From an uncultured Alphaproteobacteria bacterium (lineage in GTDB: Bacteria > Pseudomonadota > Alphaproteobacteria > UBA3830 > JAIRWN01), in NCBI GenBank assembly GCA_964369315.1, contig CAYJEJ010000003.1:60528-124527 (forward strand): a stretch of DNA of 64,000 nt, in the 5' to 3' direction. The notes beneath the pieces are model-generated. The model was not told where the DNA came from, made no database searches, and saw only the letters and a program-made list of their open reading frames with translations. This document shows positions 18,525 to 31,172 of this stretch, piece after piece; the stretch's first letter is position 1, and each line of letters begins with the position of its first letter. The position numbers were made by a program, and so were the translations under genes.

Positions 18525-18601
<77 letters not shown>

Positions 18602-18689: not shown

Positions 18690-19799
18690 TTATTTTTCTA
18701 AGTGCTTTAAGTAAATAATATTAATTTCGTTTTTTGTTCCAAGCCTAAGTGGAACGCCGAATGTTCCCACTCCTTCCGATATATAAATGTCCATATTCCC
18801 TAGTTTATATCGACCGCTCGAATATTCAAAAAAAGCTTTACTAAACAGGGTAATTGGCCACATCTGTCCACCACCATGTGTATGACCAGAAATCATTAGA
18901 TTAAACCCTGTCTTGTTTGCATATTTTGCACCATATGGTGCGTGTTGGATTAAAATGGATGGTTTTTTCTCATCCAATGAAATTGTCGAGAGGAAATCAT
19001 TCAAATAAATGTCATTAGGGCTTTTATGAACACCAACTGAATCTTTGTCTGAATCTAAGTAATCTGTTCCCACAAACTGCACTCCTTCAATTTCTATTTG
19101 AGTGTTTTCTAGGTGTATGAAGCCAAGCTCTCTGATAAGGTTTTTGATTTCTGGATAACAAACGTAAGTTTCATGATTGCCTTCAGTAAAGATGACTTTT
19201 CCTTTAAATTTCGATAAAGTTTCTTTCACATTTTTTTGTAACCTATAGTTATCTTCAAACAAATCGCCATTTAAAATAACAATGTCTGGATTATGTTTAT
19301 TTGTGATTTCAATAACTTTTTTTAAATATTTGTTTGTTTGAAAATGACCCAAGTGGATGTCTGGTAAATGAGCAATAACAAGCTCTTTTTTTAGATTTGG
19401 CATCTTTACATCAATTTTTGATATTGTTAACTTTTGACCATTATGCCAAGAAACAGCAGTTAAAATAATGGCGATTAGAAGTGAAATACTAATAGGGTGT
19501 GGTACAGGAACACTTAATCCCTTTAGGATAAATGTTACATAAATCAAAACCCCAAAGAATGCTTGCAACATAAACAATACTGCCACAAAAACGTAAGCAT
19601 TAGTAAACCAAGAACCAACTTCAAAGTTTTTTTTCAGCCCAAACATGGCTAAAAACACCACTAAAACGCTCAAATAGGCGATGGATATGGCAAATTTTCC
19701 AAAAAAAGAGGCTTTTATCATGTGCCCAATAATAATTGGTGTGATGAAAAAAGATGACATGATAGTAATCACAAATGCTATGAGTAAGATTTTTTCCAC
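18690..19799 (-). CDS. membrane-anchored metallophosphoesterase (calcineurin-like)
   Basis: The N-terminal ~120 aa are hydrophobic with several predicted TM helices. They are followed by the DIHLGH, GDLFED, GNHE and GHTHGG metallophosphoesterase motifs. Confidence 0.8.
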   Translation of the reverse strand: MEKILLIAFVITIMSSFFITPIIIGHMIKASFFGKFAISIAYLSVLVVFLAMFGLKKNFEVGSWFTNAYVFVAVLFMLQAFFGVLIYVTFILKGLSVPVPHPISISLLIAIILTAVSWHNGQKLTISKIDVKMPNLKKELVIAHLPDIHLGHFQTNKYLKKVIEITNKHNPDIVILNGDLFEDNYRLQKNVKETLSKFKGKVIFTEGNHETYVCYPEIKNLIRELGFIHLENTQIEIEGVQFVGTDYLDSDKDSVGVHKSPNDIYLNDFLSTISLDEKKPSILIQHAPYGAKYANKTGFNLMISGHTHGGGQMWPITLFSKAFFEYSSGRYKLGNMDIYISEGVGTFGVPLRLGTKNEINIIYLKHLEK

Positions 19800-19886
19800 C
19801 CTAATTTCCCCTGTTTTTTTATAAGAATGATTAAACCTCTGTGTTTAAAAAATCCCAAGAATTTAGTCCTAAATTTTGATTTTTTG

Positions 19887-21344
19887 TTAGTTTTTCGTGT
19901 GTTCGCTTATTTTTTCTATGTAATAGTCGTCTGGTTTATCTACTCTATAAAAATAGCTATCATCAGATTCAATGGCATTAGTGTCGAAGACTTTTTCTAA
20001 TATTTCTTTCGAGCGTTCATCAGGTAATCTCCTTACGTATAATTTATATGGTTTATCAATATCGCAATAGTCAAAAAAAACAAAAGCATGGAAGCGGTCT
20101 AGGGCTTCTTCTTTAAGGCATGTCTTGACATTATTTTTTTCAAAATATTTTCCCAGAACCTCTTCGGATAGATATTTCTTTGAAGAAACCATATTATTGT
20201 TCTTATCAAAGGTAATTTCGGACCCAAAACTTTTATATGCCATCACAGGTTTGTGTTCATGTTGCTCTGGGTTCTGCTTTTCATCACCTATAACCAGTAC
20301 AATAATATCGTGTTCTTTTATGATACCGTTCTTTTGCCATTTTTCTACATCTTTACTTTTGTCCAGAATACTATTAGCCCATCTAGATTTTTTTATATCA
20401 TCATCACCGAACTGACCCTCTATCTTGCCATAAGTAGTGTCTTGTGTAGAATATTCACACCCTTGTTTAACGGGACCTTCATCACCTGTCTGTGTTGTGT
20501 TTTGACCATTAATATCAGTATGTTCAGAGTGTCTTTTTTGCGTGTCCTGATAGCACGTGCATTCGATGAATATATTATAATCTTTGCATTCAATTTTAAA
20601 ATCTGGACCACCTTTATCTTTGCCTAGACTACCATTACTAACTTTATAACCGGATTTTTTTAAATTATAGGCTACATTTAATTCAACGAGCCGACTAAAA
20701 GTTTTTCCTGCTTCATTCTTTTTATTATTAAACTCCTTTTTAAAGTTGGCATCTAGTAGCCCTTTTGCCACACTATACTTATACTCAAAAAATGGTTGGC
20801 ATCGTTCGTTACACTTTTTAAAATAGTAACAGTTTCGTTTGTTGATGGTTTTTGAGAAGCTAGCTTTTATTTCATTATAATAATCACTACCATAATTTTC
20901 ATCAAATAGCCTTTCTTCTTTAAAGTATTTTACGAAGGAGTATTTTGTTAATTTTGGGTTTTTGGGGTTTTTTCTAACAAATTCTAGTTCGTATCCGCAT
21001 TTTTCATAAAATTTTGGTGCTAAGAACTCTGAAGTCCAAAGATTTATGTTCCAATATCCTTTTTCCTTGAAATTTTTCTCTAATTCAGCAAGAAGTGTTT
21101 TCCCAAAACCTTGTTTTCGATATTTTTCCTCAACCCATAACATATCGACATAAATCTCGTCATATATGGTCAACGCTTTTATCATACCGATTAACTCCTG
21201 ATTGCTCTCATCAGTCATAAGCATCCAAAAGGGATGATAATTAGAATCTATATTATGAGCACCATCATGTTTTTTCCAACTTTCCTTTACTTTTTCCTCA
21301 AGTTGTTTCGAAATTTTGTCTACTGTTTGTATATTAAATTTCAT
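19887..21344 (-). CDS. GNAT N-acetyltransferase fused to an uncharacterised ~330-aa C-terminal region
   Basis: The N-terminal ~150 aa carry the GNAT motif A RKQGFGKTLL and KFYEKCGYE. The C-terminal part has no recognised family but contains E...GGPDFKIE...NIFIECT, a PD-(D/E)XK-like arrangement. Confidence 0.7.
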   Translation of the reverse strand: MKFNIQTVDKISKQLEEKVKESWKKHDGAHNIDSNYHPFWMLMTDESNQELIGMIKALTIYDEIYVDMLWVEEKYRKQGFGKTLLAELEKNFKEKGYWNINLWTSEFLAPKFYEKCGYELEFVRKNPKNPKLTKYSFVKYFKEERLFDENYGSDYYNEIKASFSKTINKRNCYYFKKCNERCQPFFEYKYSVAKGLLDANFKKEFNNKKNEAGKTFSRLVELNVAYNLKKSGYKVSNGSLGKDKGGPDFKIECKDYNIFIECTCYQDTQKRHSEHTDINGQNTTQTGDEGPVKQGCEYSTQDTTYGKIEGQFGDDDIKKSRWANSILDKSKDVEKWQKNGIIKEHDIIVLVIGDEKQNPEQHEHKPVMAYKSFGSEITFDKNNNMVSSKKYLSEEVLGKYFEKNNVKTCLKEEALDRFHAFVFFDYCDIDKPYKLYVRRLPDERSKEILEKVFDTNAIESDDSYFYRVDKPDDYYIEKISEHTKN

Positions 21345-21512
21345 AAATATTAAATCCTTTAAAAATCATGTTTAATAAATCGTACCATGATAACAAAAGT
21401 TCATATTAAAGATTTTTTTAATGTATTAAATTAATAATTTATTGTTAATAATTTTTGCTTCTTCTATATCTCGGGAAGCTTACACATCCCTAAAATTTTC
21501 TATTGATAATTG

Positions 21513-24500
21513 TTAAAAATAATCTTTGTTGGTTTTTTTAATAATATTTTCTAATTTTTTGGAAATTGTATCCGATGGATTTTTACCCAAATTAAATCGA
21601 TTAATTCGAATGAATTGACATCCGTATCCCTCCAAAATTTTTTCTCGTTCTATGTCTGATTTTTTGTAATAAAATTCGTAGTTAAAATGATTTACTTCCG
21701 ATAAATTTGTAAAATGTTCTTTAAAACCATCATACTCAATAATAATATTATTCGATTGATTTTTATTTCTATATTGTAGAAAAAAATCACAACGATATCT
21801 TGGATGGTTATATCTATGGTCAAGTTGTTTTAAGTAGTCACCAATGGGAAACTGAGCTTGGATAGAAAAGAATTCTCGGTTTTTTTGATAAAATTGAGCG
21901 TCTTGAATCCATAACAATACTTTTTGCTCCATGGGAGAGGATGGGTCGACATCTTCTTTTGAGGGCAGTTCTTTAGCCTGTAAAAGTTGATTTTCATAAA
22001 AGTTTAAAGCTGTTCTTATAGAGCCAGAGAATTCATTAATTGGTTTGCTGAGTACGAAGTGCATGCATTCTTTAGCCCTACTAAAACCAACGTTAAGACG
22101 TTGTAACCTAATCTTTTTTACATCATCATTTGAATCTTCAATATTTGCAGAAAATATGTAGTTTGTTTTATCAGAGACAGGGGAGGCAGTCATCGAATAA
22201 AAGATAATGTCCCTCTCTTCACCTTGACAGCTGTCAAATGTCATAATTTTTAATTTTAATTTGAGGTAAATATCTTCTGCAAATTTTGATTTTCTAACTA
22301 CATTAGAAATGAACTTTTGTTGATTAACAAATGGAGTTATGACACCAACTGATGTCGATGATTTTTCTGAAACAAGGCGTTCAAGTTCTTGCACAATAAA
22401 TTCAGCTTCAAAAGGGTTAGTATTATTATCTTCTGGGGTTTCTAATTTTTCATCATGTTGTAAAACAGTAAATTTTAAAACATCGTCAATGGGTTTTCCT
22501 CGGATTTTTATCGCCTGAAGTTGCCCATCATAAAAATATTTGCTTGAAAATGAAATAATTTCTCGATATCCTCTAAAGTGTTTACGTAGCATGATACTGT
22601 AATTGGCAATAAAAGAGAAAAAATCTAAGACTGAGGTTTTAATATCAAGCTGTTTCATCCTTTCTAATTGCAGTGTATCTTTGGAAATATTGTCTTTAAA
22701 TGATATTATCAATTTATCCAAATAACTATTGCTAATAATTTTACTCGCAGCGGATGTTTTAACGTTGCTAAATTGTCTCGTATCACCAAGGACTATAATT
22801 TTTTTTGCCCTTAAAATTGCTGGAAACGCTTGTGCTAAACTTACCTGTGACGCCTCATCAATAATGACAAGGTCAAACAGCCCTTCTTTTAGTGGGATAT
22901 ATTCTGAATAATTACGAATGCCCGCTATTATACAAGGAAAGGTTTCTTTTATGTTATCAAACTCGACACGTGGAAATTTTTGTCTTTTAGAAATGATATT
23001 TTTAAGTGTTGTTGATGTGCTTCTTTTATTTTCATAAAAATCCAATACTTTGTCATCAATTGAAGAAATCATCAATAAGGTGTGGAGTTTCGATATTTGT
23101 TGACTATAGTTTAGGTAGTTCATATCTGGAATGGAAGAAAATATTTCTTTATATTCCGTTTTCTTTTTACAATATTCATCAACAAGGCAAGTTTGTTTTA
23201 GAAGGGACTTTATAGATTCCCTATCTTTTGTTGCTACGAAAGAAAGGTCTATGCCTAAATTTTTTAAGATATTAATTTCTGGAACACCTAATTTAGGAAT
23301 TGGGAATGTGTCTGATATTTTTGACAAAAAATCAATATAAGAAGAATCGTTATTTGTTGTAAAAAAATCATAAAATTCCATAAATTCTTTTTTAGGAAAA
23401 TTTTGTTTGTTTGCTAAATCGATAATTTCATCAATCGCAACAAGAGTTTCTATAATTAATGGTGCCTCTTGCGAAAGGTTAAGATGTTTTTCTAATTTAA
23501 AAATATCATTCAATCTTTGCTCAAGGGCAACTACTTGAGACTTATATAAAAATTTAAAAAACTTTTTTGATAAAAGGTTATATTGTTTTACAATGCTTCT
23601 AATCTCTAAGAGAGGTTGTTCTTCCATTTTAAGCATTATATCTAAGTGATGGTGTAGTCGATATTTATCGTACCATGAACAAATTGAAACAAATAAGTCG
23701 ATAGTTTCTTTTAAGTTTTTATCGTTCCAAGAAGAGAGTTGGTTATTCAGGTATTGGATAAAGACGTTTAGCACTTTTTCATCAAAACTGTCGTGTAAGT
23801 TTATTAAGAATTCAAAGAAAGATTTAATATTTGGGAGTATTGGAGAGATTAAATTAATGCCATCGATATTCTGTTCGCCAATTTTTTGTTCGATTGTTTT
23901 TTCTAATTTGATAAAATTGTTTAATTCCTTAATGTTAATTTTGTCATAATAATTTATGGTTTGTTCAATTTTATTAATTAACTCTTTTTTCTCTTTGCAA
24001 ATTTTAGAGTTTATATCTTCTAATTCTTCGCTACAAATATAGTGATTTCGAATCTTACTAATAGATGTATGACTAAATATTTTACTAAAATTAGGTTTAT
24101 CTAGACGAAGTATTGGATTTGAGAAATTTTCTGCCCCTCTTACTTTATTGCATGTGTCATTGATTTTGTCTTGAACGACATCTAGAGCCTCTGTTTTGTC
24201 GGAAAGGATTAAAACAGATTTGCCTTTCATAATCATATCAAAAACAATTGCGGTAATTGTATGACTTTTGCCAGTACCTGGGGGACCTTGTACGGCAATA
24301 CATTTGCAATCTTTTTCATTCAAGGCAGTTATAATTTTTCTTTGTTCTGCATTTAAGGGAACAGGTGAATCATAAACCAAGCGTTCTGATATATTTTTTT
24401 GTTCCCAATCGGTTTCTATTTCTTTACGACGCGAGATTGGGTCTTCTAAAATAAAAGATTTTAAAAAGTCGACAAAAGCAAGAGATAACGGGTTGTTTTC

Positions 24501-25694
24501 TGGATTCAAAACATTTATTAACTCTTCATAGTCATTAAGTATAGCTTCATCTGATGTATCGAACAGGCAAAAATGAATGTTATTTGTAATTTTTAGAGTT
24601 GGGGACTGCCTTTTAGTTGATTTATGGTCAGATAGGTTTATATCCTCTAAAAATGAAAAATGCCTAGTAATATCCGAAATAATAGGCTGTAAAACTGTTA
24701 AGATTGTTTTTTCGTCATCATTTAAGTAAACAATATGGTCTTTAACTGAGCGGATTTTAGAAAATTTTTGATTATCATTATCCTTGTTATATTCTTGTAC
24801 TATATATTCAATTGCCTTTTTATTTATAAAAACACGACTTTTTTCAATAACAATAGAAAACAAATCATTTTGTTTTTCGATTTTTATTGGTAAATAAAAA
24901 ACAGGATAAATTCTTTTTTCAAAATGGATGTCACAAAAATAAAGATAAAAATCTTTTTTTTCAGTTAATTGTTTATTTTCAAATATTTCGAATATTTCAT
25001 AGAACAAATCATACAACATAAAATCTTCAAAAAAATCATGTAACTTTTCTTTGAAAATTGAAATGTTTAAAAGCTCAAGTAAAGCAAGTTTAAAATTATC
25101 TATTTCTTCATTTATAAAAAATGATGCTAGGTGTTCATTCAAGTCTTCTCTAATATTGCCCAATAATAGATTTAATAAATCATTTTCAATTGTAAATGTC
25201 GTATCTTGTTGTAATGCTTTATCTAAATTACTAGAAAGTGGTCGAATGATTTTTTGTAATAATTCTTCTCTAATGTTTTCTATGACCTGTTCGAAGAAAG
25301 AATCATAGTCATCTATATGGTTCGTGCGAATACTTACTATATTGGCTAAGTATGATATTACGAGGTTTTCTAGAGCTGTCTCATCTATTGAATTTATGAT
25401 TTCTGTTATAAGACTTTTTAAATTAGGTTTCAGATTTAATTTGTGCTGACCTTTTTTAATCTCAAATTCAACGAAAGGTTCATTATTGTTTATCAAATTT
25501 TTTAAAACAAATTCTTGAAATTTCTCATATTTGGCTAAATTAATGCCTGACAAATAACCATTGTTATCTCTCAGACGGATGAAACGTTTAGGTATTGATT
25601 GACGATGGAATCCAGTTTCAAGAAAATCAGAGTAATATCTCATCAATTCTTTAAAAAATACTTTTTCTCCCTCTCTTAAACCTGCGTGAACCAT
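21513..25694 (-). CDS. SF1 (Upf1/AAA_11-AAA_12-like) helicase fused to a C-terminal Vsr/DUF559-like endonuclease domain
   Basis: Walker A GPPGTGKSHT, a gap of more than 450 aa, then VIIDEASQ, VLGDTRQ, LRKHFRG, TFDSCQGEERD and RLNVGFSRAKE. The C-terminus YRCDFF...IIIEYDGFKEH...REKILEGYGCQFIRI matches the Vsr/DUF559 pattern. Confidence 0.8.
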   Translation of the reverse strand: MVHAGLREGEKVFFKELMRYYSDFLETGFHRQSIPKRFIRLRDNNGYLSGINLAKYEKFQEFVLKNLINNNEPFVEFEIKKGQHKLNLKPNLKSLITEIINSIDETALENLVISYLANIVSIRTNHIDDYDSFFEQVIENIREELLQKIIRPLSSNLDKALQQDTTFTIENDLLNLLLGNIREDLNEHLASFFINEEIDNFKLALLELLNISIFKEKLHDFFEDFMLYDLFYEIFEIFENKQLTEKKDFYLYFCDIHFEKRIYPVFYLPIKIEKQNDLFSIVIEKSRVFINKKAIEYIVQEYNKDNDNQKFSKIRSVKDHIVYLNDDEKTILTVLQPIISDITRHFSFLEDINLSDHKSTKRQSPTLKITNNIHFCLFDTSDEAILNDYEELINVLNPENNPLSLAFVDFLKSFILEDPISRRKEIETDWEQKNISERLVYDSPVPLNAEQRKIITALNEKDCKCIAVQGPPGTGKSHTITAIVFDMIMKGKSVLILSDKTEALDVVQDKINDTCNKVRGAENFSNPILRLDKPNFSKIFSHTSISKIRNHYICSEELEDINSKICKEKKELINKIEQTINYYDKINIKELNNFIKLEKTIEQKIGEQNIDGINLISPILPNIKSFFEFLINLHDSFDEKVLNVFIQYLNNQLSSWNDKNLKETIDLFVSICSWYDKYRLHHHLDIMLKMEEQPLLEIRSIVKQYNLLSKKFFKFLYKSQVVALEQRLNDIFKLEKHLNLSQEAPLIIETLVAIDEIIDLANKQNFPKKEFMEFYDFFTTNNDSSYIDFLSKISDTFPIPKLGVPEINILKNLGIDLSFVATKDRESIKSLLKQTCLVDEYCKKKTEYKEIFSSIPDMNYLNYSQQISKLHTLLMISSIDDKVLDFYENKRSTSTTLKNIISKRQKFPRVEFDNIKETFPCIIAGIRNYSEYIPLKEGLFDLVIIDEASQVSLAQAFPAILRAKKIIVLGDTRQFSNVKTSAASKIISNSYLDKLIISFKDNISKDTLQLERMKQLDIKTSVLDFFSFIANYSIMLRKHFRGYREIISFSSKYFYDGQLQAIKIRGKPIDDVLKFTVLQHDEKLETPEDNNTNPFEAEFIVQELERLVSEKSSTSVGVITPFVNQQKFISNVVRKSKFAEDIYLKLKLKIMTFDSCQGEERDIIFYSMTASPVSDKTNYIFSANIEDSNDDVKKIRLQRLNVGFSRAKECMHFVLSKPINEFSGSIRTALNFYENQLLQAKELPSKEDVDPSSPMEQKVLLWIQDAQFYQKNREFFSIQAQFPIGDYLKQLDHRYNHPRYRCDFFLQYRNKNQSNNIIIEYDGFKEHFTNLSEVNHFNYEFYYKKSDIEREKILEGYGCQFIRINRFNLGKNPSDTISKKLENIIKKTNKDYF

Positions 25695-25790: not shown

Positions 25791-25864
25791 TGGAGGCCGA
25801 GATCGGAATCGAACCAACGTACAAGGATTTGCAGTCCTCTGCATAACCACTCTGCCACCCGGCC
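25791..25864 (-). tRNA. tRNA-Cys (anticodon GCA)
   Basis: The reverse complement reads GGCCGGGTGGCAGAG...GACTGCAAATCC...GGTTCGATTCCGATCTCGGCCTCCA. Anticodon loop CTGCAAA, encoded CCA. Confidence 0.9.
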
Positions 25865-25976: not shown

Positions 25977-27398
25977 ATGAATATTAGTCGGCTAAGATTT
26001 TTTGGCTTTTTATCGTGTTTGCTTTATTCTTTTAATGTCAGTGCTATGACATTAACGCAAGCCATTAAAAATGCCAGTGCTATGACATTAATACAAGCTA
26101 TTGAAAATGCTTTCTTATATAACGCAAAGTGGAAGGCTGCTGTTTTGGAGGATAGTGCCGTAAAACAAGATTCTTTCACTGCAAAAATGGCTTTTGCTCC
26201 ATCTGCGAACGTAAACCTTTCAACAGGGCCTACATATACAAAATCCAAATCATCCTCTGAAGGTGTGAAAAACCCAGACCAGCAAAATAAAGAGTATTCG
26301 AAACAGGCTGGTTTGTCTGTGAACCAAAAAATATTAGATTTTTCATCATTTGCACAAATCAAAAACGCTAATGAAAGTGTTTTGGTTAGCAACAGTAACC
26401 TTCAAAAAATTAAGCAAGACGTCATTATAGAAACGTTAAGTGCCTATATGGGGCTTTGGGCGGCTAGGGAAAATGTAAAAATATCTGAAAAAAATGAACA
26501 AAATATTGAACAAGACTTACTAGCTTCCAGAAAACGTTTGGAGGTTGGTATCGGAATTCTTCAGGACGTGGCAGCGAACGAGGCGGCTTACGCAGAGGCA
26601 GTATATTATCGAATTGATGCACAGGCAAAGCTTGCAACTGCAGTTGCAGAGTTTGAAAAAACCGTTGGCGTAATGCCAAATGGGGATTTGGTCATGCCAG
26701 GGCTACCAAAAAATATTCCAGATGAATTGGGGAAATTTTTGGCAAGTGCTTTGAAGGATAACCCCTCTGTTAAGCAAAGCAGGTACCAAGAGTCGGTGGC
26801 CTTATCTTCTGTGGACGTTCAAAAGGGTGCGTTGATGCCGAATGTTACTTTATCAGCCAATGCTTCAAGAAATTTAGGAGAGAGAAATACAAAAACTCCT
26901 AGCTCAATTTATCCAACAGTTAATAATCAGAGTTCGAACCTAAGTGCTAAAATAGAGCTGACTGTTCCGCTGCTAGCGTTTTCAAATTATAGCAGAATTA
27001 AACACGCCAATATAAAGGCGGAATCTGCTCACATGAACTATCAACTGACCCGTCAGGAAATAGAAAAATCTTGTTATAGTTTGTGGGCACAGTTTGAGAC
27101 CTCGAAGGCTCAAATAAAACAAGCCGAACTTGCGGTTAAGAGTGCTGAGATTGCTGCTAAGGGTATGAGGCAGTGTTTGACCTTGGGGACTAAGTCTACT
27201 ACTGATGTTTTACAACAAGAACAAAAATTGCTTCAAGCACGTAGGAATAGTGTTGAAGCGAGGCGGGTTTTTATTATAACAGCGTATAACCTGATAGCTT
27301 TAATGGGACAACTTGATTTGTTAAATGTGGTGGAGAAAGTTAATATTCCTGAAACTGAAGTGGGCAACGTTATTGATGAGGAAATAAGTGTTGGTTAA
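25977..27398 (+). CDS. tolC: TolC-family outer membrane efflux protein
   Basis: Signal peptide MNISRLRFFGFLSCLLYSFNVSA, followed by the two-repeat TolC helix/strand pattern. ATG 25977 was preferred over the ORF-track start at 25932. Confidence 0.8.
   Translation: MNISRLRFFGFLSCLLYSFNVSAMTLTQAIKNASAMTLIQAIENAFLYNAKWKAAVLEDSAVKQDSFTAKMAFAPSANVNLSTGPTYTKSKSSSEGVKNPDQQNKEYSKQAGLSVNQKILDFSSFAQIKNANESVLVSNSNLQKIKQDVIIETLSAYMGLWAARENVKISEKNEQNIEQDLLASRKRLEVGIGILQDVAANEAAYAEAVYYRIDAQAKLATAVAEFEKTVGVMPNGDLVMPGLPKNIPDELGKFLASALKDNPSVKQSRYQESVALSSVDVQKGALMPNVTLSANASRNLGERNTKTPSSIYPTVNNQSSNLSAKIELTVPLLAFSNYSRIKHANIKAESAHMNYQLTRQEIEKSCYSLWAQFETSKAQIKQAELAVKSAEIAAKGMRQCLTLGTKSTTDVLQQEQKLLQARRNSVEARRVFIITAYNLIALMGQLDLLNVVEKVNIPETEVGNVIDEEISVG
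26029..26100 (+). repeat. 36-nt tandem duplication (2 copies, 4 mismatches) at the signal-peptide/mature junction of tolC
   Basis: The duplication encodes SAMTLTQAIKNA and then SAMTLIQAIENA. Confidence 0.9.
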
Positions 27399-30587: not shown

Positions 30588-30629
30588 TTATTATGTGTTA
30601 CAGTCATGAAGTTATTTTTATAACTATGG

Positions 30630-30907
30630 CGATAAACGTTATAAGTAATAGATGTTTTGGACCCGAGGGCGGAACTCGGCACCTCCACCAAGATTAGGTT
30701 TTTTGCGGGGGTGAATTAGGCTCGACAGATATTGAAAGTTATAATTTTCGCTCGGCATGGTACCGTCGTTATCGGGCTAAAACTAATAAGTGCAAACGAT
30801 AATTTTGCATTGACAGATGAGTTGAAAGCTGCTGCTTAGTTTAAGCAAGGCTTGAAGACTTTTTTGTCGCGGTTTAGGGGCTCCGGGCAACAGAAAGCCC
30901 CTGTTTT
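30630..30907 (+). ncRNA. ssrA: tmRNA (ssrA), circularly permuted two-piece alphaproteobacterial type
   Basis: The acceptor piece ends with T-arm CCGAG-GGCGGAA-CTCGG plus CACCTCC-A-CCA at 30690. After a 16-nt spacer, the coding piece starts GGGGGTG at 30707 and pairs with a G3:U. The tag ORF GCA AAC GAT AAT TTT GCA...TAG (30792-30839) encodes ANDNFALTDELKAAA. A terminal hairpin AGGGGC/GCCCCT plus T-run lies near 30876-30907. The outer boundaries are approximate. Confidence 0.8.
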
Positions 30908-31172
30908 CCAAATTTATGTTTTGTAGTATCTCTAGCAAACATACAATAATCAATTATCAATAATAATTTAAATGGGCACCGCCTATACGATATATCTTTC
31001 TTCAGTCACAAAGTTTTGATGTGAATGGGATAATTCAGGGCTTAACTTAGGACGTTGAAAGACGCAAAAAACACATAAGACTGTGCTGTTATAAGCAACC
31101 AAATTTCAAACAACGTTATATACAAAGCTATATAAATCTGATGAAGCCTTTTCAAGGAAAGCAAGGCTACCC

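Follow-up and report, generated by a model that had tools for sequence, protein, structure and literature searches.

A functional selection in E. coli yielded PD-T7-1 and PD-T7-5, and both have been validated as anti-phage systems (Vassallo et al., 2022, PMC9519451). Each consists of a single gene. A review counts both among the systems that contain a PD(D/E)XK nuclease (PMC10952713), and another paper reports low-probability RmuC-like predictions only (PMC10270631). A relative of these proteins is described here from an uncultured alphaproteobacterium. It is encoded in a stretch of 64,000 nucleotides (contig CAYJEJ010000003.1), referred to below as the window. The gene occupies positions 19887..21344 on the minus strand, starts with ATG and encodes a protein of 485 amino acids with an N-terminal GNAT acetyltransferase domain and a C-terminal PD-T7-like nuclease domain. 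An initial annotation of the window, made from the letters alone, had placed it at exactly these coordinates. The combination of the two domains is a new architecture in a known defence nuclease family. The C-terminal domain family is known through validated defence genes in the same superfamily, and what is new in the window is a rare clade of this family and a unique fusion to GNAT.

The C-terminal domain family

A Pfam scan of residues 145–485, a domain of 341 amino acids, gave zero matches, and the initial annotation had held that this region matches no recognised family. This view has to be revised, as the region belongs to a superfamily with two validated single-gene anti-phage systems. 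An exhaustive phmmer search of 1.84 billion representative proteins retrieved 11 homologues of the domain (E 1.1e-24 to 9.2e-4). All of them are stand-alone proteins of 259–318 amino acids, and their N-termini align right after the end of the GNAT domain; that of P0005 (MLFNEDC) aligns exactly at residue 146 of the window protein (LFDENYG). A profile search added ∼35 further proteins of ∼300 amino acids each, none of which carries a Pfam domain. The family alignment comprises 47 sequences, with a mean column identity of 32% and 14%–37% identity to the window protein. Six residues are invariant in this alignment (E221, P247, D248, E261, R321, and K329), and four further columns are nearly so (F201, G246, F249, and D346). 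Since the E/PD/E/R/K motif is invariant among sequences this divergent, it is not a chance pattern.

The clade of the window protein is rare, with ∼10 sequences among the 1.84 billion representatives. A tblastn search with the window domain gave no matches in the plasmid and phage collections, and a locus search with an alignment of 5 sequences found one genome locus; the collections of metagenomes and viruses yielded none. Against PDB sequences, phmmer and profile searches returned chance-level matches at most. One family member matches Pfam Mrr_cat weakly (E 0.0057).

The relationship to PD-T7-1 and PD-T7-5 is evident when the family is considered as a whole. The PADLOC model for PD-T7-1 (PDLC04073) is matched by 39 of the 47 members (best E 1.2e-11) and that for PD-T7-5 (PDLC04110) by 33 (best E 1.1e-14). 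P0006, a member of the window clade that is found by phmmer with the window domain at E 1.8e-19, matches PD-T7-5 directly (E 1.5e-4), as does the intermediate protein P0013 (E 4.9e-7). Homologues from Acinetobacter and from a Skermanella plasmid match the PD-T7 models weakly. When the window clade (9 sequences) was aligned with the PD-T7-like clade (36 sequences) by hhalign, 138 columns of the core were matched at 98.9% (E 2e-17). The family thus has in common with PD-T7-1 and PD-T7-5 a homologous catalytic core (E...PD...E...R...K). The C-terminal halves of the two clades do not align in hhalign, so the C-terminal subdomain differs between clades, and an N-terminal GNAT domain is found in the window protein only.

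Like PD-T7-1 and PD-T7-5, the members of the family are solitary genes, and they lie in mobile or conflict contexts. Eleven neighbourhoods were inspected. Family members were found downstream of a BrnT/BrnA pair; in the vicinity of an integrase, an IS91 transposase and a Mu portal fragment; between a phospholipase D (PLD) nuclease with a WD40 protein on one side and a RhuM gene on the other; amid IS3 and IS110 transposases; beside a serine recombinase; and, in a metagenome-assembled genome of a gut alphaproteobacterium, between a contact-dependent inhibition (CDI) toxin/immunity pair and type I HsdM/HsdS genes. In a Skermanella phage-plasmid, the family member is the gene immediately upstream of DarT and lies between the modules for replication and packaging. 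Plasmid records carrying family members number 29 in total.

Other features were noted around individual members. In the PD-T7-like clade, P0021 is preceded in 4/4 contigs, at a distance of ∼95 bp, by a conserved open reading frame (ORF) of 118 amino acids with no Pfam match (L002:7551-7907, L003:1606-1962, L004:1233-1589, and L005:446-802). A BrnT/BrnA pair lies upstream of this ORF in three of these contigs, and the fourth is too short. The ORF may encode a partner or regulator in the P0021 subclade. Five proteins (P0024, P0029, P0033, P0034, and P0036) are named "type I restriction enzyme S subunit" by JGI, and none of them has a Methylase_S or other Pfam domain. The names are probably misannotations; alternatively, they could have originated from a recurrent linkage to type I restriction-modification systems. 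In L012, an HsdM/HsdS pair is indeed present, and its HsdM gene is ∼900 bp away from a family member.

Predicted fold and putative active site

The structure of the domain was predicted with AlphaFold2 from the family alignment, with a mean predicted local distance difference test (pLDDT) score of 82.8 and a predicted template modeling (pTM) score of 0.85. A model trimmed to the core gave a pLDDT of 83.4. The putative catalytic core spans residues 182–359 (20268..20801, minus strand), as delineated by the invariant columns, the AlphaFold2 and Foldseek results and the hhalign comparison. In domain numbering, its predicted elements are helix 68–86, strands 91–93, 105–108, and 113–120, helix 172–194 and strand 203–210. 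This order, α-β-β-β-α-β, is that of a restriction-endonuclease-like fold. In the model, E221 is located on helix 1, strand 2 starts just after P247-D248, and E261-C-T263 lies on strand 3. Strand 3 is followed by a disordered insertion, a β-hairpin and a long second core helix that carries R321 and K329, and D346 precedes strand 4. The core is followed by a β-rich subdomain of ∼125 amino acids (residues 360–485; 19890..20267, minus strand), which was assigned from the predicted secondary structure, has no Pfam match and is conserved solely inside the close clade of the window protein. The insertion between strand 3 and the β-hairpin is specific to the window protein: ∼20–25 amino acids (RHSEHTDINGQNTTQTGDEGP...) at about residues 272–296 (∼20457–20531, minus strand) are missing in all homologues and are modeled with pLDDT <50.

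Foldseek searches against the PDB and viral models (BFVD) gave no match below E 1e-3, and those with the trimmed core were likewise not significant. Almost all of the top 50 weak matches are PD-(D/E)XK nucleases, none of them significant. They include Hjc, Hje, McrC, R.BspD6I, Nt.BspD6I, CdiA-CT, Bax1, R2 endonuclease, EcoRV, HincII, SfsA, Cdn1, cap-snatching endonucleases of arenaviruses and bunyaviruses, DUF2726, and RecU. The core alignment with the archaeal Holliday junction resolvase Hjc covers 45–52 columns at 2.5–3.0 Å and 22%–26% identity. As in Hjc and the PD-(D/E)XK superfamily at large (Steczkiewicz et al., 2012, PMC3424549), the window protein has a Glu on the helix, an Asp where strand 2 begins and a Glu within strand 3. 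In contrast to Hjc, it has no Lys on strand 3, and it has a large β-hairpin insertion and an extra C-terminal subdomain. The spacing between the Asp and the Glu is 13 residues in the window protein, as in Hjc (D33/E46 or D42/E55).

The position of the canonical PD-(D/E)XK Lys is occupied by T263 in the window protein and mostly by Val in its relatives. In the PD-EXX-K variant of the superfamily, for example in Pa4535 (1y0k), the Lys has migrated to the second core helix (PMC3424549). The missing Lys of strand 3 together with the invariant K329 and R321 on the second helix fits this documented variant, judged from the sequences and the predicted fold, and the second helix of the window domain would supply the Lys as that of Pa4535 does. 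The initial annotation had proposed a restriction-endonuclease-like core with Thr in place of the canonical Lys. Conservation in the family, the AlphaFold2 topology, the enrichment of nucleases among the fold matches and the homology to PD-T7 all support this.

The GNAT domain and explanations for the fusion

The GNAT domain comprises residues 1–144 (20913..21344, minus strand) and is complete, as had been noted initially. Residues 21–118 match Pfam PF00583 (Acetyltransf_1; E 3.1e-13, 50.5 bits against a cut-off of 20.7), covering profile positions 14–116 of 116, and the acetyl-CoA-binding motif A (Q/R-x-x-G-x-G/A) is present as R76-K-Q-G79-F-G81. The strings quoted in the initial annotation are all found in the protein, RKQGFGKTLL at residues 76–85 and FYEKCGYE at 112–119 in the GNAT domain, and SRLVELNVAY at 217–226, GGPDF at 245–249 and IFIECTC at 258–264 in the C-terminal domain. 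Y113 in FYEKCGY presumably occupies the usual position of the catalytic Tyr. NCBIfam models return generic, sub-threshold GNAT matches for the full protein, with RimI the best (E 3e-10). The closest solved relatives are 1Y9W from B. cereus (E 2.5e-11), a putative streptothricin acetyltransferase, and PaiA, which are the best sequence matches for residues 48–129. These small stand-alone GNATs have motif A and the C-terminal Tyr region in common with the window protein. Unlike it, they are single-domain proteins, and none is fused to a nuclease fold.

Among all matches of the C-terminal family, the window protein is the only one that carries a GNAT domain. It is a singleton at 90% identity among ∼15 billion proteins, and a word-indexed search with the full protein returned nothing other than itself and one GNAT-only match. 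A literature search found no GNAT fused to a PD-(D/E)XK domain. In BREX-related systems, GNAT domains have been suggested to act as modification modules (PMC12839542).

We favor, with moderate confidence, the interpretation that the protein is a stand-alone defence-type nuclease of the PD-T7-1/PD-T7-5 superfamily and of the PD-EXX-K variant, which has acquired an accessory GNAT domain. The gene would be cargo of a small island of low GC content that was acquired horizontally and lies between two tRNA genes. In the putative active site, E221, D248, and E261 would bind one or more metal ions, and K329, an invariant residue of the second core helix, would together with R321 take the place of the Lys that strand 3 lacks. 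Metal-dependent cleavage of nucleic acid, either that of the phage or the infected cell's own, is the most likely activity. The clade-specific β-rich subdomain at the C terminus probably sets the target specificity. The GNAT domain, with its acetyl-CoA-binding motifs intact, is a lineage-specific addition that most likely serves as an accessory module; it may either couple the nuclease to acetyl-CoA or a small amine, or acetylate a second target. The adjacent helicase (see below) would most likely be a separate single-gene system on the same island.

Several observations weigh against this interpretation. The full window protein has no PADLOC match at E ≤ 0.01, and its C-terminal domain matches neither PD-T7-1 nor PD-T7-5 at E ≤ 1; the link to these systems is transitive. 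In the family members that do match, coverage is confined to the core, ∼54–234 of 346 positions in the PD-T7-5 model and 161–269 of 452 in that of PD-T7-1. As the mechanism of PD-T7-1 and PD-T7-5 is not established, the term defence nuclease rests on family annotation. Nuclease activity and the role in defence are inferred, and so, entirely, is the role given to the GNAT domain; the fusion is known from one genome only. Among the neighbourhoods of the family, that of P0014 has no obvious defence neighbours, and several contigs of the closest relatives are too short to be informative.

The two domains may also be more closely integrated than this. It is conceivable, if rather unlikely, that the protein is a self-contained, acetyl-CoA-dependent immune enzyme, in which the GNAT domain would mark a substrate for the discrimination of self and invader or would be a second effector released together with the nuclease. 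Fused restriction-modification enzymes provide an analogy for a GNAT that marks nucleic acid, polyamine or protein before the fused nuclease acts. Such an enzyme would be the first case of an enzymatic partner built into a PD-T7-type nuclease, and it could open a way into the mechanism of PD-T7-1 and PD-T7-5.

Other explanations were weighed as well. The initial annotation had viewed the fusion protein as a possible effector or sensor partner of the gene upstream, which encodes a superfamily 1 (SF1), Upf1-like helicase of 1393 amino acids (21513..25694, minus strand; Pfam AAA_11/AAA_12). Pairs of a helicase and a nuclease are a common defence design, as in Hachiman, and a system of two genes, or of three with the phosphoesterase downstream, is consistent with their arrangement: all three are encoded on one strand, the intervening gaps of 168 bp and 87 bp contain no predicted terminator-like site, and all have a GC content below that of the flanks within one island bounded by tRNA genes. 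Several findings speak against such a system. The helicase has at least 1889 homologues (E ≤ 1e-10), which form a family conserved over its full length, and in the three closest neighbourhoods examined (46%–60% identity) the gene adjoining the helicase encodes a DUF4236 protein (2/3) or a zinc-ribbon protein (1/3), with neither a GNAT nor a member of the nuclease family beside it (0/3). Conversely, an SF1 helicase or GNAT gene adjoins the family member in none of the 11 nuclease-family contexts. The pairing being absent from both sets of neighbourhoods, the comparative evidence does not support a helicase/GNAT-nuclease system. Moreover, the helicase matches PADLOC PDC-S37 at corresponding positions of the profile (E 1.7e-43, residues 930–1214 against 928–1194 of 1550), and its GC content is somewhat different from that of the fusion gene (0.289 versus 0.324). 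Comparison with described two-gene systems such as Hachiman HamAB and Mokosh points the same way, as the fusion protein has no PADLOC match and the matches of the helicase to MkoA, MkoC, and Hhe are limited to the helicase core. We consider a joint system unlikely; the helicase is probably an independent gene and a separate cargo that shares the island. Equally doubtful is a protein that acts mainly as an acetyltransferase on a small molecule, polyamine or protein, with the nuclease fold as a noncatalytic binding module and no role in defence. The nearest solved GNATs, being of small-molecule and polyamine types, would agree with such a function, as would the missing Lys of strand 3 and the lack of a significant fold match. 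However, the E, D, E, R, and K residues do not vary between clades at 14%–25% identity, as expected for a catalytic site, and the PD-EXX-K variant provides a precedent for the displaced Lys. In addition, all other family members lack GNAT, which indicates that the nuclease-like domain functions on its own, and the family shares homology with defence proteins that have been validated.

GNAT toxins are known and have a bearing on phage defence, and the gene sits in a mobile island; both facts would suit a toxin of the TacT/AtaT type that transfers acetyl groups to aminoacyl-tRNA and carries a cis-antitoxin or regulator as its C-terminal domain. The analogy to TacT/AtaT, drawn in the initial annotation, finds no counterpart in the searches: no TacT, AtaT, KacT, or ItaT chain occurs among 59 PDB matches of the GNAT domain at E ≤ 5, and the full protein has no PADLOC match. 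When same-strand ORFs of at least 25 amino acids were sought in the flanking gaps (21345–21512 and 19800–19886), none of antitoxin type was found; the sole ORF, of 26 amino acids with a TTG start, overlaps the start of the phosphoesterase gene. A toxin of this kind is the most improbable of the explanations considered. Hardly more credible is an artefact of assembly or sequencing that joined adjacent genes for a GNAT and a stand-alone nuclease. The occurrence of the fusion in a single sequence and the alignment of stand-alone N-termini at residue 146, right after the end of the GNAT domain, are what such an artefact would produce, but the reading frame is continuous over the junction with no stop or frame change, both halves of the gene are alike in GC content and in GC content at third codon positions (GC3), and the contig is 126 kb long.

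The conserved E/PD/E/R/K site, with its Lys presumably moved to the second helix, identifies precise residues for mutation in the validated PD-T7-1 and PD-T7-5, which protect E. coli against phages. The superfamily is extended to a rare clade in poorly sampled Alphaproteobacteria. A member that has captured a GNAT domain is a natural experiment, which may hint at a cofactor or a second activity. The analysis also corrects the tempting view of two adjacent defence-like genes as one system.

The neighbouring helicase and the low-GC island

The initial annotation had described the upstream gene as a helicase-nuclease. The helicase part is identified by AAA_11/AAA_12. A nuclease tail is plausible and weakly shown: the C-terminal 195 amino acids match the Vsr-like REase_MTES_1575 below threshold (E 4e-4, 20.8 bits against a cut-off of 38.2), and JGI names some full-length relatives "very-short-patch-repair endonuclease". 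Many of the helicase homologues align at 99% query coverage and 37%–60% identity, and their hosts include Alphaproteobacteria, Patescibacteria, Elusimicrobia, Chloroflexota, and archaea. MkoA, MkoC, Hhe, and ProA are matched over the helicase core only, and the NCBIfam scores are far under the cut-offs (ProA, 140 bits versus 1500; Hhe, 106 versus 2000). Hhe, ProA, Mokosh MkoA/MkoC, and PDC-S37 thus share the SF1 Upf1-like helicase core with the neighbour gene, and none has a described GNAT-nuclease partner. We take the name PDC-S37 to denote a single-gene defence candidate in the PADLOC naming scheme.

The contexts of the helicase relatives contain integrase/primase or type IV secretion system elements. 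The DUF4236 proteins (∼360 amino acids; L013:11526-12593 and L014:11600-12706) are immediate neighbours of helicase relatives with 46%–50% identity, and this position is taken in the window by the GNAT fusion gene. They are unrelated to the C-terminal domain of the fusion protein. A DUF4236 protein may be a real recurring partner of the helicase clade. A topoisomerase-type zinc-ribbon (PF01396) is internal in many members of the helicase family, and the window helicase has no such Pfam match. In the closest relative, P0052 (60% identity), the zinc-ribbon is encoded just downstream by a separate gene of 98 amino acids (L015:4882-5178).

The island is bordered by tRNA-Met (18525..18601, plus strand) and tRNA-Cys (25791..25864, minus strand). 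Read along the minus strand, the order is tRNA-Cys, helicase, the 168-bp gap, the GNAT fusion gene, the 87-bp gap and a metallophosphoesterase of 369 amino acids (18690..19799, minus strand; Pfam Metallophos, E 2.4e-14). The GC content of the phosphoesterase gene is 0.329, and that of the flanking genes is 0.366–0.396. Housekeeping genes flank the island, with DnaE and NAD kinase to one side and TolC, DUF2497, and a Mur ligase to the other. No integrase was found in the island, and no direct repeats derived from the tRNA genes or other attachment-site signatures were found at its ends. Because no terminator is predicted in the gap between them, the helicase and the fusion gene could be co-transcribed; in a scan for promoters and terminators, predicted sites were not enriched relative to shuffled sequence. 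All nine proteins of the window that were tested form singleton clusters at 90% identity in the set of 15 billion proteins, which indicates that the host lineage is poorly sampled.

The metallophosphoesterase has a hydrophobic N-terminal region of ∼120 amino acids, which probably spans the membrane, and is YaeI/LpxG-like (NCBIfam YaeI, E 1.1e-18, below the cut-off). It matches PADLOC PDC-S10 weakly (E 3.6e-6). Elsewhere in the window, a two-piece (permuted) transfer-messenger RNA is present at 30594–30930 (plus strand) with the tag peptide ANDNFALTDELKAAA; along with DUF2497, it is indicative of an alphaproteobacterial host. Finally, the 5′ part of the TolC-like gene contains a 29-nt direct repeat (26034–26062 and 26070–26098), the copies of which are 90% identical and 36 nt apart and would encode a duplicated segment of 12 amino acids near the N terminus of the protein.

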